The translations under genes and the position numbers were made by a program. The notes below the pieces were generated by a model. That model was not told the DNA's origin and did no database searches. It saw only the letters and a program-made list of their open reading frames with translations. Positions 47,845 to 63,843 of a stretch of 64,000 bases of DNA are shown here, piece after piece. The stretch covers positions 1,152,001 through 1,216,000 of the forward strand of contig OY759746.1 in assembly GCA_963662795.1 (NCBI GenBank), given 5' to 3'. This stretch comes from Spirochaetia bacterium (GTDB lineage: Bacteria > Spirochaetota > Spirochaetia > CADAEX01). How positions within the stretch are numbered: the first letter of the stretch is position 1; each line of letters opens with the position of its first letter.

Positions 47845-48558
47845 TTATAATAATTCAGATTCCATAATCAGAAGTGTCTTGGGGTCAAGAAAAAGATGTC
47901 TTTCCGGGGTGATGATTTCATCACGGTCCTTGACAACATCCATTCTTATGTTTTTTTCATCATATTTCAATGTGATCAGGACATCAATTACATCTAAAAG
48001 ATCTGCAAGTTCATAGGGAATTCCATTTTCATCAAATGTAAGATCATTCTTTTTAAGCGATGCGCTTACCCATACTTCAATATTTAATTTTTTTGCAAAT
48101 TCCTTGACTTTTTTCAAGCCGTCAAAGCTCATCTGTTCAATCTCAAAACCATCCACAATTACCGCATCCGCCTTGAAATTACCGCCGACAATCATTGCTT
48201 CAAGGCTTTTAAGTATCTGTGTAATATCAATCTCTTTTTGGTTGAAATTCATTATTACCCTGTTGCGGATAATTTCATCATGAATTGAAAGAGCATTTTC
48301 AAGATTTCTCTTCTTGGAAATTTCGTTAAAAATATCTTCATACCAGCTTATAATATGATCTGTTCTTTTGGAAAATGAAACATGGATTACGTTTCTTTCG
48401 CGGAAGAGTTTATCTGTTGCTATATGCACAAGACACGCAGTTTTCCCCACCCCTTTTTTGGAAGCAACAAAAGCAATATTGCCTTTGCCAAGCCCGCCAT
48501 TGATAGACTTCTCAAGTATTCTCAATGGACTTCTCTGTATAAGTTCCGACTTAACCAT
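47845..48558 (-). CDS. RecA/KaiC/DnaB-like P-loop ATPase of unknown function
   Basis: Walker A ASKKGVGKT and Walker B VIVDG. Confidence 0.7.
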   Translation of the reverse strand: MVKSELIQRSPLRILEKSINGGLGKGNIAFVASKKGVGKTACLVHIATDKLFRERNVIHVSFSKRTDHIISWYEDIFNEISKKRNLENALSIHDEIIRNRVIMNFNQKEIDITQILKSLEAMIVGGNFKADAVIVDGFEIEQMSFDGLKKVKEFAKKLNIEVWVSASLKKNDLTFDENGIPYELADLLDVIDVLITLKYDEKNIRMDVVKDRDEIITPERHLFLDPKTLLIMESELL

Positions 48559-50890: not shown

Positions 50891-51766
50891 CTAATAAGAG
50901 CTGAAATATGTATTTATAATAAGGGCGACTTTGCCCTTTGTAATTTTCATCCCTTTACTGCGGGCTTCTTCATATACTTCATCAACTGTAGCAGAAGAAC
51001 GTCTGGTTTTTATTTCAATTATTGAATCTATATCATTCTGAGGTATGGGCTCTTTACTACCATAAATACCTTTTCGCGTAACCGCGATATATGCATATCT
51101 GAGAGCATCAAAATCGGAAAGCAGTTTTTTGTGTTCAGCAGACAGGGACTCGAGATCTTTCCTGAGTCTGTCAATTTCTCCATCCTGCCCTGCATCTTTA
51201 ACATTGATGTCCGAAATCTGTTTTATAATGAATTCAGGATCATGGGCAGCAATATACCTGACAGGGTCAGCAACAGCTTCATCAACAGCTTTCAACAAAA
51301 GGTCAGGTCCGTAATACTGTCCTCTTATTCTGATAAAATAATTATCTTTTACTACCCTGAAATCATACATAGTATAATCAGTGTGTATAAAGGTAATTCC
51401 CGCCGGAAGATATGGTGTCAGCTCAGAATCGTTATAGGTGAGAGAACCGGGAATAACATTTATCTCAATACCGTCTTTTTTAAAGATCAGCTTTACTGAT
51501 TTGGCCGTCAATGTACTCCAGTTAAAGATTTCATCTGCGAATATTTTCAGAGTTCTTCTTTCACTGTCGCCAGGTGTGCCTTCCAGAATTATTGAGACAT
51601 CAGCGTCTCCGCCCTGATAATTAACCCTGTATATATTAAATGAGCCTTCTTTTCCGGTCTGGCTGAATGTTATATTATTAAAATCAGGCGCCCTGTCTTG
51701 CGCAAATACAGATATAGTACCCAATATTAAAAACGCCAATGCCATTATCTTTATTTTTTTCAGCAT
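50891..51766 (-). CDS. Hypothetical exported protein
   Basis: Signal peptide MLKKIKIMALAFLILGTISVFA behind an AGGAG RBS (track start 51808). Confidence 0.7.
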   Translation of the reverse strand: MLKKIKIMALAFLILGTISVFAQDRAPDFNNITFSQTGKEGSFNIYRVNYQGGDADVSIILEGTPGDSERRTLKIFADEIFNWSTLTAKSVKLIFKKDGIEINVIPGSLTYNDSELTPYLPAGITFIHTDYTMYDFRVVKDNYFIRIRGQYYGPDLLLKAVDEAVADPVRYIAAHDPEFIIKQISDINVKDAGQDGEIDRLRKDLESLSAEHKKLLSDFDALRYAYIAVTRKGIYGSKEPIPQNDIDSIIEIKTRRSSATVDEVYEEARSKGMKITKGKVALIINTYFSSY

Positions 51767-51813
51767 ACTATTAACTCCTGTTAACTCCCCGGCCGCTGAT
51801 TCTTTCAATTTAA

Positions 51814-53184
51814 TTACCTGATTATTACCAGTATTCTGTCAAAAGGCCGTATCTGCTTTTTCTCAGCTCCCTGCTGCGGCGAACCAGTTTCCCGCGCAAA
51901 AAGCTTGTCATCTGTATAATAAAACTCAATCTCACCAATAGGTTCATTATCATTTCTAAAAACATAGGCTTTATCGCCGGTTTTTATTTCAAGTATCTTA
52001 TTCATGAATACTACTATTTCATCGTTGCTTACAGGATCAACAACATAGCCGCTGACTCCGCTGGCCTGAATATAGTAATCAAAAGCATTGCTGAAATTTT
52101 CAATATGCCTGTTTTTTTCATCAATTTTCTGCGCGCTTTTATTCCACACGGATTCATAACCATTTCTGATAAAAAGTTCTTTTTCATTTAACCTTTTTAC
52201 GGCATCTGCTACTGAATTCTGATATGGAACCTTTGCCAGCTGGTCAAGGAGAATATTAATCTTTTCGGATTCCTGTCTTATGCTGTCGATTTCACCGGCA
52301 GAAGCTGCATTGTCCTTTTCCAGAATTGAGACTGAAGTCTGCTCAGCAAAAGCAGGAACGATTTTATCTTTTTTATCTGATAAAATCTTTTTAATACTTT
52401 CCGATTTAAAAACAGGATCAAGCTTATTTTTCAGGACACTTGCCAGCCTCGCGCTGTCTCTTTTCAATGAAGCATTCTCCGCCTCGAAATTGGCAGTTAT
52501 TGACCTGATCCTTTCTTCATATGAGTTAACCAGCTCCTGCTGCTGCAACTCCGCCATCCTGCGCTGGTTGTTAAGAATTTCATCCTGTTTTCTTGCTTTA
52601 TCCAGCACAGCGGCATCATAGGATGCCATTGATTTTTCTATTTCCTTTATTTCCTCTTCTTTAGCCGCGATTTTTTCCCCATATTCCGTTTTTATAATGG
52701 CAGAATCGCTGTTTCGCTTTTTATAGATCGCAGCTATCCTTAATTTCTTCATATTATCGCTTTCACCGCTTGCCATCACTATGGAAATATCCCTTTCAGC
52801 CTTGCTGTTCAGATTGTCTATTTCCTCATTCATGTTAAGCTTCAGATTTTCCTGATCCGCTCTTGTTTTTCTTAGATTCTGCTCAAACTTTTTAGCTACA
52901 TCCAGAATATCCTTGAGATTTACGTCCTCAAAATCCTTGATCTGGACCGGGACAACCTTGCCGGATTCCTGTATATATCTTGTTACTGCGTAAGCTGTCC
53001 CGACAACTGCAATCAGAAAAACAAGGAGTGTAATCATTACAACATAATTTCTGTTCTTTTTTGATGCTGCAAATTCCACTTCGAGATCGTAAAGTTCCTG
53101 AGAGCCTACTTCAAGATTCCTCCAGTCAAGAAATGCGCTTTTGCTCTTGCTGACTAAGTCTTTTACTTTTCCATCATTGTCCAT
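51814..53184 (-). CDS. Hypothetical single-TM coiled-coil protein
   Basis: One TM helix near the N-terminus, long heptad-rich region, short beta-rich C-terminus; overlaps the cyclase stop. Confidence 0.75.
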   Translation of the reverse strand: MDNDGKVKDLVSKSKSAFLDWRNLEVGSQELYDLEVEFAASKKNRNYVVMITLLVFLIAVVGTAYAVTRYIQESGKVVPVQIKDFEDVNLKDILDVAKKFEQNLRKTRADQENLKLNMNEEIDNLNSKAERDISIVMASGESDNMKKLRIAAIYKKRNSDSAIIKTEYGEKIAAKEEEIKEIEKSMASYDAAVLDKARKQDEILNNQRRMAELQQQELVNSYEERIRSITANFEAENASLKRDSARLASVLKNKLDPVFKSESIKKILSDKKDKIVPAFAEQTSVSILEKDNAASAGEIDSIRQESEKINILLDQLAKVPYQNSVADAVKRLNEKELFIRNGYESVWNKSAQKIDEKNRHIENFSNAFDYYIQASGVSGYVVDPVSNDEIVVFMNKILEIKTGDKAYVFRNDNEPIGEIEFYYTDDKLFARETGSPQQGAEKKQIRPFDRILVIIR

Positions 53185-54863
53185 ATACCATTCCAGTTTT
53201 CAGGCGGTTTTGCTCCTGATATCCTGCTTATAAAAACTTCCGCAGCAGGGATTCCGCATTTTGCGAAGTATTTCTCCGCAGCTTTCCAATCGCCTTTATA
53301 ATAATCTTTAAGGGCAGTGTCAAACATCTCCAGTCTTCCTTCAAGGTCAGAATCAAGTACATCAAGGGGAACAGGCCAGAAAACCTTTTTCCCTTCTTTC
53401 TTGCCCTTGACTTTAACAGTATCAAGCTCCTGGAAGAAATAATCAGCATTATTCCTTATTGCATCATTTTTAATATATTCAGAACATATTACAGGTACCT
53501 TGTAGATCCTTGTAAGCCCTTCAAGGCGTGAAGAAGAGTTGACATTATCACCGATAACCGTATTTGTCATTCTTTCATTTGATCCGATGTTGCCGTAAAA
53601 GACATCTCCGCCGTCGATGCCGACTCCTACTTCGATGAGGACGGCCCTATAGACCATCTCTTCGGCAGCAGAAAGAGCTCCGTATTTTTTGACAATTTCC
53701 TCTTTCTTGTCAATCATCTTTTTTCTGAGAGAAGCTGCTACTTCCTGTATTCCGTATCCTGAAGCAAGAGCCTGAACAGATTTGTTTTCTACGGAATCAT
53801 CAAATGTGCCGAAGACGGCCAGCAGCGCATCTCCGATTATGGAACCGACAATACCTTCCTTCCTGTGGACTCTTTTGATCGCTTCCTGATAGTGCATGTT
53901 TATGAGGCTGATTATATCTGTACCGAGGATTTCGGTCATATTTGTAAACTGCTTTATATCTGAAAACAGTATTGTCAGCTCTTTGGATGCCCCTTCAAGC
54001 TTTATTCTCTGTTCCTTGTAGGCTTTTCTCGCAACATCTGCAGTTACAAATTTCTTGAAGATGTTCATAAGGTTATCTATATTGCTGGAAAGCGAGTTGA
54101 ATGACATACCCAAAAGCGTTATATCATCATTGGGAGCATCTTTGAGATCGATAATCCCTATTCTCTGGTCTGTTCTCATTGCCATAATCTGGTCTGTCAT
54201 CAGTTTAACAAAGCGGAGCAGGCTGTTGACGAGAAATACCCCCAGAAAACCGCATATAATTGTTATGGCGATTATAATTACTGCTACCCGGTTAAAAACC
54301 ACTCTTGTAGGATAATAAAATTCGTTAACCTCTTCTGCCCTCACAAGAAAGGTATTCCATTTCTGATTGAATTTAAATACACCGAAATATTCAAGATTCC
54401 CAAGATAAAAATTAATGGCCCCTTCTTTTGTCCCGGCGGCAGATGCTTCCACGATAAGATTGTTAAGCGTGGGCCTTTCTGTCTCTTCTACGTTTATGGT
54501 AGGGGAAACTGAAAAAAACAGGCTGCTGTCTGTATTTATACCGATAAATACAGATTTTTCTCCGCGCAGTTCCTTTATGGCCCTTTCACGGATATTCTTT
54601 ACAGACTCTTCCTTATCTTCATTAAAAGAAAATATTTCATATTGATTATTACAGAAAATATGAAGATCCTTGAGATCCCTTACAAGAAGCTGGTTTAAAA
54701 GTTTTATCTGCACTCCCCTGTTAAGAACCAGATTGATATAGTTTGTCGTAAAATTGGAAAGCAGAAGCAAAACTGTGAAAAGTCCTGTAATCTTGAGTGT
54801 AATAGGTACAACCCTTGTACCTCTGATTTTATGTCCTATAAAATTATTAATATTTTTCTTCAC
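53163..54863 (-). CDS. Membrane-bound class III nucleotidyl cyclase (2 TM, periplasmic sensor, HAMP-like linker)
   Basis: LFSDIKQFT, IGDALLAVFG, GNIGS, TVIGDNVNSSSRLEG and VKGK motifs. Confidence 0.9.
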   Translation of the reverse strand: MKKNINNFIGHKIRGTRVVPITLKITGLFTVLLLLSNFTTNYINLVLNRGVQIKLLNQLLVRDLKDLHIFCNNQYEIFSFNEDKEESVKNIRERAIKELRGEKSVFIGINTDSSLFFSVSPTINVEETERPTLNNLIVEASAAGTKEGAINFYLGNLEYFGVFKFNQKWNTFLVRAEEVNEFYYPTRVVFNRVAVIIIAITIICGFLGVFLVNSLLRFVKLMTDQIMAMRTDQRIGIIDLKDAPNDDITLLGMSFNSLSSNIDNLMNIFKKFVTADVARKAYKEQRIKLEGASKELTILFSDIKQFTNMTEILGTDIISLINMHYQEAIKRVHRKEGIVGSIIGDALLAVFGTFDDSVENKSVQALASGYGIQEVAASLRKKMIDKKEEIVKKYGALSAAEEMVYRAVLIEVGVGIDGGDVFYGNIGSNERMTNTVIGDNVNSSSRLEGLTRIYKVPVICSEYIKNDAIRNNADYFFQELDTVKVKGKKEGKKVFWPVPLDVLDSDLEGRLEMFDTALKDYYKGDWKAAEKYFAKCGIPAAEVFISRISGAKPPENWNGIWTMMEK

Positions 54864-55028: not shown

Positions 55029-55631
55029 ATGTATGTAGTCTGTCTTGATCTTGAAGGTGTTCTTGTTCCTGAAATCTGGATAAATGTAGCAAAAAAAACC
55101 GGAATTGACGAACTCAAGCTCACTACAAGGGATATTTCTGATTACAATGCCCTGATGAAACGAAGAATTGCGATCCTGGATGAGAACAATCTTAAGCTTA
55201 AAGATATACAGGATGTAATTGCGACAATGGATCCTCTTGACGGGGCAGAGGAATTCCTTGAAAAACTCAGGGAGCTGACACAGGTTATAATTCTTTCAGA
55301 TACATTTACACAATTCGCTAAACCGCTTATGAAAAAACTCGGATGGCCTGTTATTTTCTGCAATGAACTTGTAATTGACAATTCAGACAGAATCTCTGAT
55401 TTCGCCTTAAGGCAGCAGGACGGGAAAAAACATGCTGTTAAGGGATTTCATTCAATGGGCTTCAAGGTTGTTGCTTCAGGTGATTCATATAACGATCTTT
55501 CAATGATAAGGGAAGCAGACAGCGGGGCCCTTTTCTGCCCTCCGGAAAAAATCGTAAAAGACAATCCTGATCTTCCGGTTGCAATGACACACAGAGAGCT
55601 GCTGGAAATAATAAAAAACCTTGTAAAATAA
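55029..55631 (+). CDS. thrH: Phosphoserine phosphatase / homoserine phosphotransferase
   Basis: CLDLEGVLVPEIW, ILSDTF and GDSYND HAD motifs. Confidence 0.93.
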   Translation: MYVVCLDLEGVLVPEIWINVAKKTGIDELKLTTRDISDYNALMKRRIAILDENNLKLKDIQDVIATMDPLDGAEEFLEKLRELTQVIILSDTFTQFAKPLMKKLGWPVIFCNELVIDNSDRISDFALRQQDGKKHAVKGFHSMGFKVVASGDSYNDLSMIREADSGALFCPPEKIVKDNPDLPVAMTHRELLEIIKNLVK

Positions 55632-55645
55632 AAAAGCAGGCCTTC

Positions 55646-58105
55646 TTAGCCGGTTAATCTTTTAATCTCATCTTTCAGCAGAGGGAAAAGCTGTGCTACC
55701 CTTTTAAGATTTTCCATTGATTTTTCAGCATTGTTTTCCTTTGCACTCTTTTCCAGTTCACCTGCCGCATCCCCGAATTTTCTGATAGCAAGATTCCATG
55801 AGCCCCCCTTGATTGAGTGGGCTTCACGGCATAGCGATTCAAAGTCCTTTTTTTCAAGAAGTACCCTCATATCCGGCAGCTGCTTCTCAACCCTGACGCT
55901 GAACTCGGAGAGCGTTTCAAGCAGTATTTCCTTTTCACCCATAAAAGTATCGAGAGCGTCGTTATAGTCAATCATTTCAGCGGCTTTATCCGGAAAAACC
56001 GGCGATACAGCGCTATCTACGGTATTTTTTCCCGTACCGGTCCCTGTCTCAGCAGGCTTTGTTTTAACTGCGCTGATAATCGAATTCCCATTTCCGTTTT
56101 TTTCAGACGCAGGTTCCAGCTCCTCAAGGTCTGCTACTTCATCACCGACTATCAGCCACTTGCTGAAAAGCGGAACCAGGTCGGTCTTTTTGAAAGGTTT
56201 GGAGAGAAAATCATCCATGCCTGCTTCAATACATTTCTCTTTTTCGCCGGCAATTGCATTTGCAGTAACAGCTATTATTGGAGTAGTCACCCCCATCTCC
56301 TTAATCCTTCTTGAGGCGTCAAAACCGTTCATTACCGGCATCTGTATATCCATCAGGATAAGATCGAATTTTTCTTTTTTTGCCAGCTCAACCGCTTCCA
56401 GTCCGTTATCAGCAACAGAAACATCAATATTGAAATTGTTTAGAATTGTTTTAAAAAGTTTCTGGTTGATATAATAATCCTCGGCAAGGAGGAATTTTTT
56501 TCTGCTGTTAAGAAGCAGCTCCTGAATTACACTGAGTTCCTGTTCGGTAGTACTGTCCTCCTCCTCCGCATCAATTACTATTCCAAGAGCCTTGAATACA
56601 GCGCTGTACAGATGCCTTTTTTTAACCGGTTTGTTGATATATCCGTCAAACCAGTTCAGGAGCTTCATTTTTGCCTCATCCCCACCCATTCCGATGGGAG
56701 TCATAAGGACCTTTTTAATATCTGAATATCGGCTTTCTGCTTTTATTTCACTTGCAAGCTGCCATCCGTCCATACCGGGCATTCTCTGATCAATCAGCAC
56801 CAGGTCTACATCAGCAGCACCGCTCTTTACCCTGTCAAGAAACGAAATGGCTTCATTGCCGTTATCAGCTTCATAAACCCTGATCCCAATCTCTTCAAGA
56901 TATTTCCTTACCTGCTTCCTGCTTGTTTCATTATCATCAACAAGCAGCAGCTCGATTTTCACAGGAAGTTTTAATGCGCGGGATATTTTCCCTTTTGACA
57001 ACGTAGAAACCCTGGTTCTGATAGTAAACCAGAAAAGGGAACCCTTCCCCTCAACACTGTCAAACCCAATTTCTCCGCCGAAAAGTTCCGCAAGTTTTTT
57101 GCTTATGGAAAGGCCGAGGCCCGTACCTCCGAATTTGCGGGTTATTGATGAATCGACCTGGGTAAACACGTTAAAAAGAAGATTTTTTCTGCTGTCAGGG
57201 ATACCTATACCGGTATCACTGACAGTGAACTTGATTTTCATCTCACCGCCTTCTGTTTTAACCATGCTGGCGCTTACAACAATCTCCCCGTTTTTGGTGA
57301 ATTTGATCGCATTGTTCAGTAGGTTCATAACAACCTGCCGGAGCCTTACAGGATCGCCCTCAATTATCTCAGGAACATCAGGTGAAATAGACAATACAAC
57401 TTCAAGCCCTTTTTTGTGTGCTTCCATTGCAATCAGGGTAACTGCGTCTTCAAGCGTTTCATAAAGATTGTATCCAATATTTTCAAGTTCAAGTTTTCCG
57501 GCTTCAATCTTGGAAAAATCAAGGATATCGTTGACAAGACTTAAAAGGACACCTGCAGAAAAAAGAATCTGATCGCCGTATTCCTTCTGCTCAACATCAA
57601 GCGGCGTATCAAGAATAAGTTCCGACATCCCCATGATTGTATGCAGCGGTGTTCTTATTTCATGGCTTACATTGGCAAGAAATTCCGATTTTGTTCTCGC
57701 TGCCTGTTCGGCAAGCCCTTTTGCTTCCTCAAGCTGCTTTTCTGCAGTTTTCAATTCTGATATGTCGTCTATCAGGCCGATATAAAGTTTTCTGTCCTGG
57801 TCATCTGCTGCTGAATTAATTCTTACAGTATAGGATTTTCCGTATTTTTCTTTATCGCTGTATTCATATCTGATGCTGTCTGTCCCTGTTTTTACGAATT
57901 CATTGAATTTGCCGGTAAACTCTTTAAAAAATTCATCACTCAGGACATCTGAAAGTTTTTTCCCTTCAATTGCTTCATTTTTTTCCCCGGTAAGTTTTTT
58001 AAAGGAAATATTTGCTTTTAAAATTTCAAGATTATCACCAAAAATAAAGACTGCGTAAGGAGAATTCTCGATAAAATCAATTAATACCTTTTCAAACTGG
58101 AGCAT
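55646..58105 (-). CDS. Soluble hybrid histidine kinase (PAS-HisKA-HATPase-REC-REC-Hpt)
   Basis: FLANVSHEIRTPL, NAIKFT, GGTGLGL, two receivers (LIDQRMP, LMDIQMP) and Hpt AHSIKG. Confidence 0.94.
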   Translation of the reverse strand: MLQFEKVLIDFIENSPYAVFIFGDNLEILKANISFKKLTGEKNEAIEGKKLSDVLSDEFFKEFTGKFNEFVKTGTDSIRYEYSDKEKYGKSYTVRINSAADDQDRKLYIGLIDDISELKTAEKQLEEAKGLAEQAARTKSEFLANVSHEIRTPLHTIMGMSELILDTPLDVEQKEYGDQILFSAGVLLSLVNDILDFSKIEAGKLELENIGYNLYETLEDAVTLIAMEAHKKGLEVVLSISPDVPEIIEGDPVRLRQVVMNLLNNAIKFTKNGEIVVSASMVKTEGGEMKIKFTVSDTGIGIPDSRKNLLFNVFTQVDSSITRKFGGTGLGLSISKKLAELFGGEIGFDSVEGKGSLFWFTIRTRVSTLSKGKISRALKLPVKIELLLVDDNETSRKQVRKYLEEIGIRVYEADNGNEAISFLDRVKSGAADVDLVLIDQRMPGMDGWQLASEIKAESRYSDIKKVLMTPIGMGGDEAKMKLLNWFDGYINKPVKKRHLYSAVFKALGIVIDAEEEDSTTEQELSVIQELLLNSRKKFLLAEDYYINQKLFKTILNNFNIDVSVADNGLEAVELAKKEKFDLILMDIQMPVMNGFDASRRIKEMGVTTPIIAVTANAIAGEKEKCIEAGMDDFLSKPFKKTDLVPLFSKWLIVGDEVADLEELEPASEKNGNGNSIISAVKTKPAETGTGTGKNTVDSAVSPVFPDKAAEMIDYNDALDTFMGEKEILLETLSEFSVRVEKQLPDMRVLLEKKDFESLCREAHSIKGGSWNLAIRKFGDAAGELEKSAKENNAEKSMENLKRVAQLFPLLKDEIKRLTG

Positions 58106-58123
58106 CCGTATTTCCCCGTTTTA

Positions 58124-59392
58124 TCAGAATCCCGGATTCAGGATTTCTGCTGTTTTTCTTTTTATCGCATCAGGTTTTAACGGTTTTGACATATAGCTTC
58201 TGACTCCGTATTTAACTGCTTTAAGAACTGTTTCCTTCTGGGACAGGGCGGAAAGGATGATTACCGGTGTATTGATTTTCTCCCTGTTCATATATTCGAG
58301 AACTCCGAATCCGTCAAGTTCAGGCATCATTACATCAAGAAATACAAGATCATACTCATTGCCGGGAAGGGCATCGACAAACTTTTTCCCGTTTTCATAC
58401 AGGTCGAGCTGCCATTCAAGTGATTTGAATACAGTTTTAACAAGCTGGCGTATCACAAAATCATCATCAACAATTGCAATTTTCACATTATTCCCGATTG
58501 TCTCAAGCTGCCTGAAGAGGTTTTCCGCTTCAAACCTCATTTCAATTTTACCTTCCTGAGCATTTCCGGAAAGTTTTGCCCCCAGCAGATTATCTTCAAC
58601 TACCTTGTCCTGGGCATATGTATCCCCTTTCTTCCCGATTAGTATATCAAGGGCATCGCCAAGATTGTTGGTTGTCTTTATTCCCCTGAATTCCGGAACA
58701 GATTTAACATAATCCTTAATTGCGCCGGAGTTTGTAAGAATCATTATCTGATCAGGCTTTTCAGCAGCACTTTTTACAGCAATATCAAGGAGATTGCGCA
58801 ATTTGAAAATATTTTTATCCTCAATTTCAATATTCGACATCATAAGGAGGATTTTAGGATGCGCTATGTTGTATATTTTTATCAGCTCGTTAAGCCGGAA
58901 CTGCAGGATGTCAATTTTTTCGGTATTCAGCCCGCGGGCAATTTCAATAAATATAATTTCATCGTTGTAGTTTGCTTCAATTAAACAGGGCGAATCATCG
59001 ACTTCCATCTCTATTTTAAATATCTCTGAAACACCTTTAAAAAGTGAATCAATCTTTACCGGTTTTGAGAGTATTTTTTTTACCCCGTATTTGGCAAGCT
59101 CCACTATTTTGCTTTTATCAATTCTGCTGGTAAGAAGAATTACCGGTATAGATGAGGTATTTGGATTTGTCTCTTTCTCGATAAGTATTTCCTGGGAACT
59201 TTTTCTTGTGAGCATGTAGTCCATAACGATAAGATCAGGAATTACCTTTCGGAGTTTAAGTGACCCGTCAAGCCCGTTTACCCCGTTGAAAACTTCGAAA
59301 TTCAAATCTGCAAATTTTTTTTCAAGATACTGGCGGAATTCCTCGTTTTCATCAATTATCAACACTTTTTTCATTAGTCTCTCCAGATTCAA
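58124..59392 (-). CDS. Response regulator with two receiver domains and no DNA-binding domain
   Basis: N-terminal REC (LIVMDY, SKPV) and C-terminal REC (VDDD, FLDVMMP, SKPL) around a central domain. Confidence 0.88.
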   Translation of the reverse strand: MNLERLMKKVLIIDENEEFRQYLEKKFADLNFEVFNGVNGLDGSLKLRKVIPDLIVMDYMLTRKSSQEILIEKETNPNTSSIPVILLTSRIDKSKIVELAKYGVKKILSKPVKIDSLFKGVSEIFKIEMEVDDSPCLIEANYNDEIIFIEIARGLNTEKIDILQFRLNELIKIYNIAHPKILLMMSNIEIEDKNIFKLRNLLDIAVKSAAEKPDQIMILTNSGAIKDYVKSVPEFRGIKTTNNLGDALDILIGKKGDTYAQDKVVEDNLLGAKLSGNAQEGKIEMRFEAENLFRQLETIGNNVKIAIVDDDFVIRQLVKTVFKSLEWQLDLYENGKKFVDALPGNEYDLVFLDVMMPELDGFGVLEYMNREKINTPVIILSALSQKETVLKAVKYGVRSYMSKPLKPDAIKRKTAEILNPGF

Positions 59393-61569
59393 TTTTTATT
59401 AAATACTGATTCCATTGTAAAAATATCAGTAAGAACTTCTCTGGTTACCGCATACAAAGGGGGAATCCCCTCAAATGCGTTCATACCGGTGGAAAGCTGG
59501 TTTTTAGGGCTGGCAGGAAGGTCCGAAACATAATAATAAAAATTCATCGGGATGTTATCTGCAATAAGGCCGTGCTGCCTTGCCTCAATTATCTGCCTTA
59601 AATAATAAACCCCTTCCATTTCAAGTCCTATACAGTCCCAGATGTGTCTGTAGAAAGAAAGCATCATGCTGTTCTGAAACAGGGTGCCGTCCACAGTCAG
59701 CATAGGTCCTCTGTATATTTTAGTTTCAGCAAGCCTGTTTTGTAAACGATTAATTGTTTTAAACGCCCTGTTTTCAACTGGAAGAAAAAGATCCTCCGAC
59801 TGCCCGATAAAAGCGTCAGGAAGAAGTATATCTCCCCTGTTTCCAAGCAGCGCGCCCGCCTTTCCCAGAATATTAATGCTGCCGAGGTTTTTCCCGAACT
59901 GCAGAAGAAGGTTTCTCATAATTTCAGAAGCCTGCTCACCGAAAGCATAATCAATATTAAGTATCAGCGACTTCGACCTTGCAGGGATTTCAGGAAGGCC
60001 CGGGTCAATATTCTTATTTACAAGCTTGCACAGGCTGAAAATCTGAACCCTGATTCCTGTTGATACGGTTCTGTCAAGCTTGATAATGCCATCCGAAATC
60101 TTGATGCTGCCGGGGTTTTTCTCATCTTCCTCATCCAGAAAATCCCTTGAAAGCGCATACAGCATATCATGCCGGTTGTGCCATTTCTTTTTTGCAACAG
60201 GGTGTCTGTTCTTTTCTCCCCATGCAATAATCTCTTCCATTCTGTCAAGCAGCGAGGAGTTAAGACAGTTTATAACCGAGTGTGTATTGCTGCTTATAAT
60301 ATGGACTTTTATATGCGAAGGAAGTTCATTGGCCTTGAATCCGGTGAGTTCCCGCACAGCGTCGCCTATCTGGGTGAGCCACATTTCAGAACGCCTTGTA
60401 TTATAAAGCTCGAGCTGTCTTTTTATGACAAGATGGAAAATACCGCTGTGCAGAGCCGCCTGATAAAGGTATTTAACAGTATCCTCAGGCCATGCAGTTT
60501 TAAGGCCTGCAATCTCACTGCCGGAGAACGGAAGCGTTTTCAGAAATTCTGAATCACTCTTTTCCTTATCTTTTGGAGAAAGCTGATTTTTTGATAAATG
60601 ATTTTTAATTGCGAGCAGAATCCTGTGCTCCGAAAGGCGTGTCTTTATTTTTTCCGCTTCAACTGTTAAAACGCACAGGCATGTAATAAGATCAAGAAGG
60701 TCTGTTATTCCCGGGCGGTAGAGCATCATTGTCTGGCCCGGCATCATCTTCCAGCACCTTCTCCGCCTTGCAAGGGCAGGAGAGGGATCAAAAAGCTTCC
60801 ATGGTTCAGGTATGTGTTCATAAAGCTCATCAATAAGTACATATATAAAGTTTTCAGTTACATTGCCGGGAAGCCGTTTTATGGCATAATCAAGCGCCAG
60901 GGTGTCAACAACCTCGCTGTTATTGATATCAGTATGCAGAGCCGGCTCCATCTCGCGGTAGAAAGGGATAAGGTCCCTGATTTCCATGCTGCCTTTGTTT
61001 ATGCCCTGGAGAACTTCGGATTTGAACCGTTCAAATGCGGCAAATATCCCCTGTTTATTTTTCAGGATTGTACTCATTGCTTTTGAAAAAGCTTTTGATG
61101 AGTGTATAAGCTTTCTGAAGTTCCGGCCTGTTATGGTGTAGCACTGAACATCAGAAAGAGCCCTGACAGTATATATTCTTTTTTGGTTAAAGATTGCCGA
61201 GCGTTCCCCGAAATAATGTCCCGAAGTAATTACATTTATCCTTACAGTCCCGGCGGCCCTGTAATCTATAGTTTCAACAGCCCCTTTTTTTATTAAAAAC
61301 ATGCTGTCTTCAGAATCGCCTTTGCTGTATATTGTCTCTCCCTTGCGGAAGGTATATTCCCTTAAATCCTTGATAAGTTTCTTTTTTTCAGAAGAAGAGA
61401 GGAAGCGGAACGGAATAACCCCTTCCAGCAGTTCAATCGCAGCATCACTTCCCTGCCTGCGGTCCGGTTTATCCTTTTTGCCGGCGGCTTTGCTGTTTAC
61501 CCTGTGGCTTGCGGCACCGGCACTGCCTGTATTTTTGCTGAAGGCAGTATCCTTTGATGTGCGACCCAT
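59389..61569 (-). CDS. cNMP-binding domain + DUF6909-like (nucleoside phosphorylase/nucleosidase-fold) protein
   Basis: cNMP cassette YFGERSAIFNQKRIYTVRA; C-terminal HIISSNTHS, DYAFGEQA, LGKAGAL..GD, GLEMEG and YVSDLP. Confidence 0.75.
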   Translation of the reverse strand: MGRTSKDTAFSKNTGSAGAASHRVNSKAAGKKDKPDRRQGSDAAIELLEGVIPFRFLSSSEKKKLIKDLREYTFRKGETIYSKGDSEDSMFLIKKGAVETIDYRAAGTVRINVITSGHYFGERSAIFNQKRIYTVRALSDVQCYTITGRNFRKLIHSSKAFSKAMSTILKNKQGIFAAFERFKSEVLQGINKGSMEIRDLIPFYREMEPALHTDINNSEVVDTLALDYAIKRLPGNVTENFIYVLIDELYEHIPEPWKLFDPSPALARRRRCWKMMPGQTMMLYRPGITDLLDLITCLCVLTVEAEKIKTRLSEHRILLAIKNHLSKNQLSPKDKEKSDSEFLKTLPFSGSEIAGLKTAWPEDTVKYLYQAALHSGIFHLVIKRQLELYNTRRSEMWLTQIGDAVRELTGFKANELPSHIKVHIISSNTHSVINCLNSSLLDRMEEIIAWGEKNRHPVAKKKWHNRHDMLYALSRDFLDEEDEKNPGSIKISDGIIKLDRTVSTGIRVQIFSLCKLVNKNIDPGLPEIPARSKSLILNIDYAFGEQASEIMRNLLLQFGKNLGSINILGKAGALLGNRGDILLPDAFIGQSEDLFLPVENRAFKTINRLQNRLAETKIYRGPMLTVDGTLFQNSMMLSFYRHIWDCIGLEMEGVYYLRQIIEARQHGLIADNIPMNFYYYVSDLPASPKNQLSTGMNAFEGIPPLYAVTREVLTDIFTMESVFNKN

Positions 61570-61629
61570 TTTTATCCCTCCTGTCTGGTGACCGGATTTT
61601 CCTTATGCCTGCGCGGGAAAACGGGAGTA

Positions 61630-62118
61630 CTAGAATTTATATCCGAATTTCCTGAGCATTTCCTTCCGCGCCTGTTTATCTCCGGAATTCTCAACTCCTG
61701 CAGGAGAAGATCCGTCGATAACCCCCATAATCCCTTTCCCCTGCCCTGTTTCCGCTGTAATTACCTGAAGAGGATTAGCGGTAGCCGCAAAAACAGAAGC
61801 TACTTCGTGGCAGTTCTTGATCTGGTTTAATATATTTATCGGAAAAGCATTTTTTATCAACAGCACAAACGTATGCCCCGCGCCGATTGCAAGTGCGTTA
61901 TCTGATGCGGCCTTAACAAGTTCTTCTGAATTACCTTCTGTTCTTATGAGGGCCGGGCCTGAAGCTTCACAGAAGGCAAGACCGTATTCAACGCCCGGAA
62001 CACTGCCGATAACAATCTCGGCAATATCTTCCGCGGTTTTTATAAAATGCGACTGCCCTAAAATCAGGTTAGCCCCTTCGGGAATTTTAACCTGAACCGC
62101 ATTTAATCCAACATTCAT
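61630..62118 (-). CDS. Adenosine-specific kinase family protein (DUF355)
   Basis: ILGQSHFIKT, GLAFCEASG, AGHTF, ATANP and GVIDG motifs. Confidence 0.88.
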   Translation of the reverse strand: MNVGLNAVQVKIPEGANLILGQSHFIKTAEDIAEIVIGSVPGVEYGLAFCEASGPALIRTEGNSEELVKAASDNALAIGAGHTFVLLIKNAFPINILNQIKNCHEVASVFAATANPLQVITAETGQGKGIMGVIDGSSPAGVENSGDKQARKEMLRKFGYKF

Positions 62119-62136: not shown

Positions 62137-63843
62137 TTATTTCTGCCCGCTGAGCTTCATAACAAGATCAAGGTTGATTTCACAGGCTGCACACGGCATC
62201 TGAATACTCCAGTTTTCAAGCACCTGGGGTGATATTTCCCCCATTATGCCAATTTCCCTGTCGCCCAGAACAACCTTTGCACATCTTCCGCTTATAAACC
62301 TTGGATCGTCAGATTCTTTAAGGACATAATCGGCAGAGATATAAAACATTACTGCGGACAACTGTGAACTTACAAGATTAAAACCGGCATCCTTATCTGC
62401 AGAAAGAAATCCAAGCGAGTTTATAGTCGCGACACCGTAATTATCATCTTCATCCCTGACTCCTGTCTTGCCGGCCTCGAATATCCTGTGGGGATAAACA
62501 GCATTTCCAGACACTGCCTCGGAATTAAGAAGTGAAGGGAGAATTGAAGCCCTTAAGTATTCATAGCTTTCGCTCATCGGGTTTGCGATCCTGACAATTT
62601 CTGTCCCCTTTATGTTCATCTTCTCGATATAGTCTTTCCCGGATCCAAGATAGTTATAAACCATCTCCTGAAATCCGAGCCCGACCATTATATTTTTGAT
62701 TCTTCTTCCGAATAAGGTTTCAGGAGTAAGTTTTCCCATAGTAAAGTCATCCGGCATGACCGGTTCGAAGTTGGGAAGCCCCTTTCCTATCATTATATCC
62801 TCAATTACATCAACGGGGTGAAGAAAATCATTCCTGTAAACAGCGGGATATAATGTCAGCTTTGACCCGCTGACTTCTATCCTGCATCCGAGTTTTCTTC
62901 CAAATGCAGCGGCCTCCTCCGGAGTATATTTTTCACCGAGAAGTTTATTTACATAGGAAATATCTGCCGTTAACGGCTGCTGAAAATAAAACGGGGCTGT
63001 AACCTCTCTCCCAAGCGGAGTGTCATAAGGGTAGATCGTCTTTACCGGAAGTATCTCATATCCTGCGTCTGAAAGGTCGCAAGCCACTATCGCTGTCGCG
63101 ATCAACAGCGAAAATATATCAGTCCCCGTCATTTCGACAAAAAGCTCTTTGTCCCCTTCAAGTACAGCGCCGATATCGTTGCTGTTGATTACAGGAGGAA
63201 GACTTAGTGTTTTCCCATCATTATCAGTTATATAAGGATATCTGGGGAAATCAGCAATTATGCCCCCGTATTCCTGGCCCTTGGGATGTTCTTTAAGTAT
63301 TTCCCTGAGAGTGAGTTTTTTTTCAAATCCCAGCGGAACAAATCCTTCCTTATCAGGGTCGGCGGCAAAGTAGCGGACCGGAAATTTAAAAATATCGCTT
63401 CGGTAAACACCCATAGCGATGGCTTTTCTCTTTTGTCCGTAGTTCCAGCACAGCTTTTCCTGTGTCTGTATGATATCTTTAAGGGAAGCCTCATCAATAC
63501 CTTCTCCCTTAATTGCGAATCCGGCAATAAAAGGTCTTATATCCTTTAAAGCAGGGTCTACTGTTATTGATCTTCCGCCTGAATCCAGAATTTTTTCCGC
63601 TGTTGAGAAAAAGCTGTATTCATTTTTCCCGCCTCCGATATAGACACGGAGCTGCCGTGCAATTCCTGCTGTTGACCAGAGATCGGGCCGGTTTGTGTCG
63701 TTAAGCTCAATTTTAAGGATATCATCTTCCCTGCCGTCAAATTCAGCTTTTGCGGCTGAAAGCAGTTTTACAAAATCATCTCCTTCGACCCTTTTCCCGA
63801 TATATTTATAAAGTGCGTCTTCGTATACTTCAATTTTAGGCAT
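62137..63843 (-). CDS. pheT: Phenylalanine--tRNA ligase beta subunit (short, archaeal/eukaryotic type)
   Basis: NDTNRPDLWS, LSLPPVINS and RNDFLHPVDVIED motifs; 568 aa. Confidence 0.95.
   Translation of the reverse strand: MPKIEVYEDALYKYIGKRVEGDDFVKLLSAAKAEFDGREDDILKIELNDTNRPDLWSTAGIARQLRVYIGGGKNEYSFFSTAEKILDSGGRSITVDPALKDIRPFIAGFAIKGEGIDEASLKDIIQTQEKLCWNYGQKRKAIAMGVYRSDIFKFPVRYFAADPDKEGFVPLGFEKKLTLREILKEHPKGQEYGGIIADFPRYPYITDNDGKTLSLPPVINSNDIGAVLEGDKELFVEMTGTDIFSLLIATAIVACDLSDAGYEILPVKTIYPYDTPLGREVTAPFYFQQPLTADISYVNKLLGEKYTPEEAAAFGRKLGCRIEVSGSKLTLYPAVYRNDFLHPVDVIEDIMIGKGLPNFEPVMPDDFTMGKLTPETLFGRRIKNIMVGLGFQEMVYNYLGSGKDYIEKMNIKGTEIVRIANPMSESYEYLRASILPSLLNSEAVSGNAVYPHRIFEAGKTGVRDEDDNYGVATINSLGFLSADKDAGFNLVSSQLSAVMFYISADYVLKESDDPRFISGRCAKVVLGDREIGIMGEISPQVLENWSIQMPCAACEINLDLVMKLSGQK

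Follow-up and report, generated by a model that had tools for sequence, protein, structure and literature searches.

What is the function of a protein in which a cyclic-nucleotide-binding (CNB) domain is joined to DUF6909, and do the genes packed around its gene serve that same function? The question is raised by a stretch of spirochete DNA, 64,000 nucleotides of contig OY759746.1 (forward-strand positions 1,152,001-1,216,000), which is called the window here and whose own numbering is used for coordinates. The minus strand has five open reading frames (ORFs) in a row, encoding the Phe-tRNA synthetase beta chain (pheT), a member of family PF04008 (Adenosine_kin, formerly DUF355; protein P0001), the 726-residue CNB-DUF6909 protein (P0002; 59389-61569), a regulator with two receiver (REC) domains, and a hybrid histidine kinase. 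A sequence-only reading of the locus had taken the four genes after pheT for a single nucleotide-signaling operon. The answer reached here is narrower. We favor, with moderate confidence, the view that P0002 is an enzyme cleaving purine N-ribosyl bonds under the control of a cyclic nucleotide (cNMP), and that its neighbors are a composite in which the phosphorelay is a probable partner and a nearby nucleotidyl cyclase a possible one.

The CNB-DUF6909 protein and its C-terminal fold

Pfam assigns two regions of P0002. The cNMP_binding domain (PF00027) covers residues 73-157 (E 3.2e-18; 65.9 bits against a cut-off of 27.5), and DUF6909 (PF21850) covers residues 197-717 (E 4.1e-111; 372.4 bits against a cut-off of 27), taking in positions 1-534 of the 535 in that model. 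An AlphaFold2 model based on an alignment of 60 homologs (A1) had a pLDDT of 89.4 and a pTM of 0.87; it was compared with 48,161 representative chains by VIA-align (VIA) and was also searched with Foldseek. Along the chain come a CNB domain (residues ~37-177; 61039-61461), the N-terminal half of DUF6909, which is alpha/beta plus helical in the model (residues 190-393; 60391-61002), and a C-terminal domain (residues ~394-720; 59410-60390) assigned from the structure comparisons to the NP-I fold, that of PNP, MTAN and AMP nucleosidase.

The N-terminal sensor is the clearer of these domains. Residues ~32-177 superpose on cyclic-nucleotide-binding domains with Z scores of 15-18.6, among them CNB-B of PKG II (Z 18.6, root-mean-square deviation [rmsd] 2.5) and the CNB of PycTIR (8jsk_B; Z 18.6, rmsd 6.2). 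The sequence-only reading had described an intact cNMP phosphate-binding cassette (FGE...R) joined to a domain with GKAG, GD, EME and SD-x-P motifs, and each of these motifs was located. FGE lies at 120-122 and the arginine is R131; G121 and E122 never vary among the 60 homologs, and conservation of R131 is at least 90%. Judged by its residues, the cassette is intact. When the whole-protein alignment was compared by sequence with PDB chains, CNB proteins alone appeared among the 60 matches listed.

The first 35 residues of the annotated protein (residues 1-36 correspond to 61462-61569) are of low complexity, with a pLDDT below 50 in the model. Because homologs are 30-40 residues shorter, and that of the nearest relative (locus L045, 72% identity) aligns only from residue 38, translation may in fact begin 3' of the annotated ATG.

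What does the sensor control? The proposal that the C-terminal part has a PNP/AMP-nucleosidase fold was borne out by structure comparison. Residues ~390-720 of the model match MTAN 6aym_A with a Z score of 20.0 (rmsd 2.7, 206 of 229 residues aligned), uridine phosphorylase 6k5g_A with 19.8, PNP 1odi_A with 19.4, and AMP nucleosidase with 18.8 (7uwq_A) and 16.1 (1ybf_A). Each of these matches spans most of the target chain, and Foldseek retrieved MTAN 4x24_A at E 5.7e-9. In the model, then, the C-terminal ~330 residues of P0002 take the NP-I fold.

The motifs of this domain are HIISSNTHS (423-431), DYAFG-Q-A (540-547), GKAG (569-572), GD (579-580), TV-GT--QN (625-633), EMEG (650-653) and YY-SD-P (679-685, with SD at 682-683 and the proline at 685). 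In MTAN and hexameric PNP the Glu-Met-Glu motif binds ribose and the Ser-Asp motif provides the catalytic acid for the purine base. The corresponding E650, M651, E652, S682 and D683 do not vary among 13 sequences drawn from two spirochete classes, and their conservation is at least 90% in 58 sequences that include Bacteroidota, Acidobacteriota and Myxococcota. Profile comparison points the same way: hhalign of a DUF6909-only profile against a 7-sequence spirochete MTAN alignment (E 4.6e-4, probability 33%) pairs GKAG 569-572 with the Gly-x-Ala-Gly (Ser-Ala-Gly) ribose/base loop and EMEG 650-653 with VEMEG, and a relaxed extension, the low-confidence part, pairs VSD 681-683 with ISD. The probability was 1.1% against the single MTAN of the window's own genome and 3.6% against an alignment of trimeric-type PNPs. 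Some relatives of P0002 come closer to recognized NP-I sequences: 22 of the 60 homologs match PF01048 (PNP_UDP_1) at E<=1, the best at 1.9e-7, and a distant family member, P0233, passes the cut-off of that family (26.1 bits against 25.1). At the sequence level the NP-I signal thus appears weak but consistent.

By the ranges that VIA aligns, VHIIS 422-426 is the first strand of the fold, and the S-N-T-H-S loop after this strand is nearly invariant. From these aligned ranges only, the loop would correspond to the one that is acidic in MTAN and to the phosphate loop in PNP. Glu12 of MTAN activates water, and Arg24 of PNP binds phosphate. We propose that a cNMP bound to the CNB domain would switch the catalytic domain on or off, and that the reaction so controlled would split N-ribosidic bonds in nucleosides or nucleotides of adenine or another purine. 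Candidate holders of a phosphate are the Ser/Asn/Thr/His-rich loop 426-431, Lys570 and possibly Arg268/Arg270; the phosphate held could be either the co-substrate of phosphorolysis or a 5'-phosphate, as in AMP/ATP nucleosidases.

The N-terminal half of DUF6909 is of a different kind. Modeled alone, residues 190-393 had a pLDDT of 93.5, and comparison with solved structures gave no convincing relative: the best Foldseek match had E 0.16, and the best VIA match (Z 3.7) was to residues 182-306 of 7uwq_A, within the catalytic part of AMP nucleosidase (Amn). STING rows in the Foldseek search of this half were discarded (rmsd ~17). Pfam finds no family in this half besides DUF6909, and a search of the ESM Atlas returned DUF6909 clusters alone. 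Residues P209, Y228, R232, L233, P234, R268, R270, D293, E304 and K307 are invariant in it (58 sequences, several phyla).

How close is P0002 to the enzymes whose fold it is predicted to share? MTAN (MtnN/Pfs) is its best match both in structure and by profile, with the same motif order of Gly-x-Ala-Gly loop, Glu-Met-Glu and then Ser-Asp. However, identity is ~15%, the loop after the first strand is rich in Ser, Asn, Thr and His rather than acidic, there are long insertions between the first strands, and P0002 has an obligatory N-terminal domain of ~190 residues without a solved-fold match as well as the CNB sensor. A canonical MTAN and a PNP are also encoded in the window's genome. The layout of Amn, with an NP-I catalytic domain after an N-terminal regulatory region, may be similar, and Amn is allosterically regulated by nucleotides. 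It differs in that the DUF6909 N-terminal half is not significantly similar to any chain, no Amn family is matched in Pfam or NCBIfam, and regulation of P0002 would run through the CNB domain.

DUF6909 as a family

DUF6909 is widespread. An exhaustive profile search gave 1175 clusters (50% identity) at E<=1e-3, of which 308 reach E<=1e-30, and at least 591 relatives lie in stretches of species-representative genomes. In a sample of the phylum comprising 401 genomes the family occurs in 18: six of the window's class have frames of ~700 residues, leaving room for a CNB domain, and the other 12, from one family of another class, have frames of ~560 residues, with no such room. Bacteroidota members mostly lack the CNB domain, and CNB-fused ones are found as well in bins of Myxococcota and Planctomycetota. 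The family extends to eukaryotes, with members in a ciliate and among EukProt entries (protists); the latter include very long forms of 1100-1700 residues.

The domain is found alone and in several fusions. Among 41 long forms scanned, 20 have a CNB domain, one cluster (P0160, 3 members) has REC+CNB+DUF6909, and one (P0151) has GAF+DUF6909. Two (P0212, P0208) have DFP_C at the C-terminus, the arrangements being NADAR+DUF6909+DFP_C and DUF6909+DFP_C, the latter from the ciliate Blepharisma stoltei. This pattern suggests an enzymatic output domain set under varied small-molecule and phosphorylation sensors.

Gene neighborhoods were examined at the best 80 plus 12 of the at least 591 genomic loci. 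In Bacteroidota, the ~560-residue DUF6909 without a CNB domain belongs to a conserved co-directional block (L072, L120 and 34 other loci) in the order M23 peptidase, GH3-family adenylating enzyme, DUF6909, a ~331-residue protein, dTDP-rhamnose genes. The GH3-family enzyme is directly upstream in 28 loci and the ~331-residue protein, which has no significant Pfam match, directly downstream in 31.

That DUF6909 is without an assigned function, as the sequence-only reading had stated, agrees with Pfam and with our search of the literature. As far as we searched, the fusion of CNB and NP-I domains found here in this widespread, uncharacterized family is not in the literature: no published fusion of a CNB domain with an NP-I or AMP-nucleosidase domain was found, although the supplements of the Detocs preprint, which lay outside the search, could list some.

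Is the C-terminal domain an enzyme at all? Several points weigh against the reading that we favor. P0002 itself gives no PF01048 match even at E<=1, and the DUF6909-only profile (A2), compared by sequence with PDB chains, finds no NP-I chain (best E 0.13). Homology of the C-terminal half of DUF6909 to NP-I enzymes rests on predicted structure, and the residue equivalences to MTAN come from the 33%-probability hhalign alignment and from aligned ranges. No acidic or basic residue is confidently placed at the position of MTAN Glu12 or PNP Arg24. A non-catalytic sensor could have such conserved ligand-binding residues too, and our literature search found no mention of DUF6909 by name. The domain might be a ligand-binding pseudo-enzyme acting as a signaling scaffold, or might act on some ribosyl substrate other than a purine N-riboside. 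Besides the missing PF01048 and sequence-level PDB matches, such a role would fit the large N-terminal domain, without a solved-fold match, that is obligatory in the family, the NADAR and DFP_C fusions, suggestive of substrates that are NAD/ADP-ribose-like or otherwise derived from nucleotides, and the Bacteroidota gene order, in which the family has a GH3-family adenylating enzyme on one side and genes for cell-envelope sugars on the other. We nevertheless think it improbable, though worth keeping in view, since the counterparts of the MTAN Glu-Met-Glu and Ser-Asp residues are invariant or nearly so across phyla, as expected for an active ribosyl-purine enzyme.

Neighboring genes and their possible links to the putative enzyme

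Is the putative enzyme part of a larger system? As the sequence-only reading had noted, the ORF listing has four close-packed, co-directional genes after pheT (568 residues; 62137-63843, minus strand; Pfam tRNA_synthFbeta, B5 and PhetRS_B1). They encode, all on the minus strand, P0001 (162 residues; 61630-62118), P0002, the regulator and the kinase (819 residues; 55646-58105). The spacings given earlier (18 nt, 60 nt, a 4-nt TTGA overlap and 18 nt) are all present, but the start codon that creates the overlap is unlikely. The ORF caller began the regulator at TTG 59392, giving 422 residues. Seven codons inside this frame is an ATG at 59374, and since GGAGAG stands just 5' of it and the regulator of the nearest relative aligns from residue 7 of the TTG-start form, translation more likely begins there, which would give a regulator gene of 58124-59374 and a 14-nt gap instead of an overlap. 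The genes are closely packed whichever start is used, and the minus-strand intergenic gaps contain no terminator-like sites.

Twenty-eight other CNB-DUF6909 loci were compared; the phylum sample supplied 5 and the genome scan 23. pheT is upstream in 11 of them, and a gene for a ThrH-like HAD phosphatase is beside CNB-DUF6909 in 13; in the window this gene is on the plus strand after the kinase gene (55029-55631; NCBIfam ThrH, 300 bits against a cut-off of 133) and is probably a synteny marker, functionally unrelated. Conservation of the gene order in other genomes, which the operon reading called for, did not hold up, the full four-gene order being found in one of the 28 loci, that of the nearest relative, L045. 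L045 is colinear with the window from pheT to EF-G, except that it lacks the cyclase gene and the two genes after it. CNB-DUF6909 is nonetheless syntenic with pheST, ThrH and EF-G across spirochete families and is single-copy in the window's genome. Its distribution is vertical, and its context, as had been proposed, is a housekeeping one: the neighbors are pheT, ThrH and EF-G, and PADLOC found no defense genes among the eight window proteins scanned.

The PF04008 gene was the first candidate partner. P0001 is a full-length member of its family (E 5.8e-71; 237.7 bits against a cut-off of 25), with His82 in the conserved GAGHT motif; this we take to be the histidine that is phosphorylated in PAE2307. 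Its relatives in the PDB are ST1511 (E 1.6e-64) and PAE2307 (E 2.7e-52). The portion of PMC10248530 available to us describes adenosine/AMP binding and a phospho-histidine in PAE2307, in agreement with what the sequence-only reading had stated of DUF355 proteins. The same portion reports ADPase activity for a Thermus homolog and no detectable kinase, phosphatase or other activity for a Thermotoga homolog, leaving the family's own activity unsettled.

Could P0001 sense adenosine, or pass a phosphoryl group on from its histidine, with P0002 making or consuming the nucleoside and the phosphorelay transmitting the result? Such an integrated four-gene operon would suit the close packing and common direction of the genes, the lack of an intergenic terminator-like site, the same order in L045, and the ligand and phospho-histidine described for PAE2307 (PMC10248530, in part). 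The distribution of the genes argues otherwise. pheT-PF04008 pairs occur without DUF6909, regulator or kinase in three genomes (G145, G245 and G323, two of the same family and one of another). Of the 401 genomes, 48 have PF04008 above its cut-off and 18 have DUF6909; just 2 have both, and in one of these (G110) the two genes are on separate contigs. PF04008 is beside CNB-DUF6909 in just one of the 28 other loci (L045), whereas in 13 the slot directly upstream of CNB-DUF6909 is taken by an unrelated protein of ~320 residues (for instance L048:7965-8939, with 12 other spirochete loci), which has no Pfam match. The window's genome has a homolog of this protein (40% identity) ~400 kb off, at C1:1618393-1619259, and PF04008 fills the slot. 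The lack of kinase and phosphatase activity in the Thermotoga homolog (PMC10248530, in part) also speaks against the scheme, and nothing in our data ties P0001 specifically to DUF6909. We therefore consider the integrated operon distinctly unlikely. PF04008 is probably a pheT-linked gene, not specific to the CNB-DUF6909 system, that adjoins the enzyme gene because both occupy the slot downstream of pheST. The inclusion of DUF355 in the system thus has to be dropped; the four genes make up a composite rather than a single dedicated system, and the operon reading was too broad. It may be added that a partner shared across phyla was considered and rejected, the spirochete ~320-residue and Bacteroidota ~331-residue proteins being unrelated (hhalign probability 0.1%).

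The phosphorelay genes are a better case. Pfam gives the regulator two Response_reg domains and the kinase the order PAS-HisKA-HATPase_c-REC-REC-Hpt. The phosphorelay residues are intact: H148 (H-box), D439 and D586 (receivers) and H763 (Hpt) in the kinase, and the acceptors Asp58 and Asp353 in the regulator. The two proteins would be expected to form a multi-step phosphorelay, and the earlier description of a kinase/dual-receiver relay without a DNA-binding output matches these Pfam domains. The middle region of the regulator (~170 residues) belongs to no Pfam family and gave nothing usable even at E<=1; by eye, residues ~130-300 (58490-59005) look like an alpha/beta module of the STAS/anti-sigma-antagonist type. 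Elsewhere in the genome, at C1:3686711-3690287, is a paralogous module in which a hybrid kinase (30% identity to that of the window) and a regulator of the same REC-x-REC type (23%) are accompanied by genes of the CheR and CheB kind. Beside CNB-DUF6909 in L048, L051 and L059 there is a similar arrangement, kinase / CheB-CheR-PAS / REC.

Is this relay connected with the enzyme? Of the 28 other loci, 8 have a two-component gene no more than 7 kb downstream. In L048, L051 and L059, whose DUF6909 domains are 36-42% identical to that of the window, the best match of the kinase in the window's genome is the window kinase (229-252 bits, against 164-177 for the next), so that kinases beside CNB-DUF6909 in three distant lineages are apparently orthologous to it. 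The REC-Hpt proteins of L048 and L049 also align best, by a small margin, to the C-terminal REC-Hpt part of the window kinase. Because of this recurrent neighborhood and the REC-CNB-DUF6909 fusion, a functional link has moderate support, and we think that relay and enzyme are probably connected, the relay either modulating the enzyme or responding to it. Three considerations detract from the coupling that the sequence-only reading had proposed: the two-component neighbors are mostly on the opposite strand (convergent); shared ancestry could explain their recurrence, since the block also keeps pheT and ThrH; and the REC fusion was seen as a single cluster.

What might supply the ligand of the CNB domain? 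A class III nucleotidyl cyclase, 566 residues long and predicted to be membrane-anchored, is encoded on the minus strand at 53163-54863 (PF00211, E 1.6e-14), ~800 bp beyond the kinase gene; it lay outside the part of the window covered by the sequence-only reading, which missed it. Its N-terminal region has hydrophobic stretches (read by eye), and this region gave nothing usable in Pfam at E<=1. This nearby membrane cyclase may supply the cNMP. Between its gene and that of the enzyme are three others, of which one is on the opposite strand, and the genome has 10 matches to PF00211, this one included, and 19 to PF00027. Two of the 28 loci have an ortholog, which in L047 (52% identity) immediately follows ThrH and in L049 (50%) lies at a distance of 7-9 kb; there is also one weak, partial match. 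Its absence from the nearest relative, L045, counts against a fixed partnership.

The cyclase gene is followed by two co-directional genes (51814-53184 and 50891-51808), the trio standing between ThrH and EF-G; products of the two have no Pfam match at E<=0.0001 and nothing usable at E<=1. The trio is absent from L045 and G145. A 237-residue protein encoded on the minus strand at 47845-48558 has weak KaiC-domain matches (NCBIfam E 3e-7, below cut-off) and is kept beside EF-G in L031, L032, L045 and G145.

Relation to sensor-gated immune effectors, and outlook

A cyclase, a CNB sensor and a predicted nucleoside-cleaving domain together recall anti-phage systems. Could infection, through a cNMP or the kinase, turn P0002 into an abortive effector that destroys ATP or another nucleotide, as in systems of the Pycsar or Detocs type? 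Its CNB domain is like that of PycTIR (Z 18.6 to 8jsk_B; PADLOC PycTIR-type models at E 4.6e-7 to 3.1e-5), and the cyclase matches PycC models (E 1.5e-12, PADLOC). PNP-fold effectors gated by sensors and two-component systems do exist: as described in the portion of bioRxiv 10.1101/2023.01.24.525353 available to us, Cap17 (CBASS) and DtcC (Detocs) are sensor-gated PNP-fold enzymes that cleave ATP, and the Detocs operon includes a histidine kinase and receiver proteins. P0002 likewise joins a sensor domain to a PNP-type fold, and the REC-CNB-DUF6909 fusion exists elsewhere.

The locus also differs from these systems. What PADLOC recognizes is no more than the generic CNB and cyclase domains. 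Searched by itself, the NP-I domain had no match to its models at E<=1; a control, the MTAN of the same genome, matched a PN-superfamily effector at 5.7e-8. Detocs is marked by a response regulator whose receiver is fused to a Cap17-clade PNP domain, accompanied by a kinase and a receiver-only buffer, and in the window the NP-I domain is fused to a CNB domain; the term 'cyclic nucleotide' is absent from the available portion of 10.1101/2023.01.24.525353. Pycsar pairs PycC with an adjacent CNB-effector in a defense context, but here an NP-I-like domain is the effector, the cyclase, a membrane-sensor type and one of ten, is not adjacent, the neighbors are housekeeping genes with no defense island, and inheritance is vertical. 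A single-copy gene in synteny with pheST, ThrH and EF-G across spirochete families, the lack of defense genes among the eight proteins scanned, and the breadth of DUF6909, protists included, all point away from immunity, and we regard an anti-phage role as very unlikely. We thus return to the cNMP-gated, purine N-ribosyl-cleaving enzyme in a housekeeping setting.

This view can be carried further, speculatively and with rather low confidence. DUF6909 proteins might be widespread, non-defense, sensor-gated adenine-nucleotide nucleosidases. In spirochetes, cNMP and phosphorelay would then trigger cleavage of AMP/ATP, or of an NAD/ADP-ribose-type compound, resetting the adenylate pool as a growth/dormancy switch. 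The family would be the housekeeping counterpart, possibly the source, of Cap17 and DtcC, and its Arg-rich N-terminal domain would be a new lid for the phosphate tail.

To our knowledge, the sensor-gated NP-I enzymes described so far are immune effectors (Cap17, DtcC), and bacterial cNMP signaling is otherwise known to act mainly through CRP-type regulators, channels and a small number of enzymes. The locus suggests second-messenger control of purine ribosyl-bond cleavage in ordinary physiology. If this is correct, it would represent a new output class for bacterial cNMP signaling and would tie spirochete cNMP signaling, with the ten cyclase and 19 CNB matches of this genome, to control of the nucleotide pool. 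It would also provide a testable activity for DUF6909, a large family without an assigned function, with 1175 clusters and at least 591 genomic stretches, that extends to ciliates and other protists.

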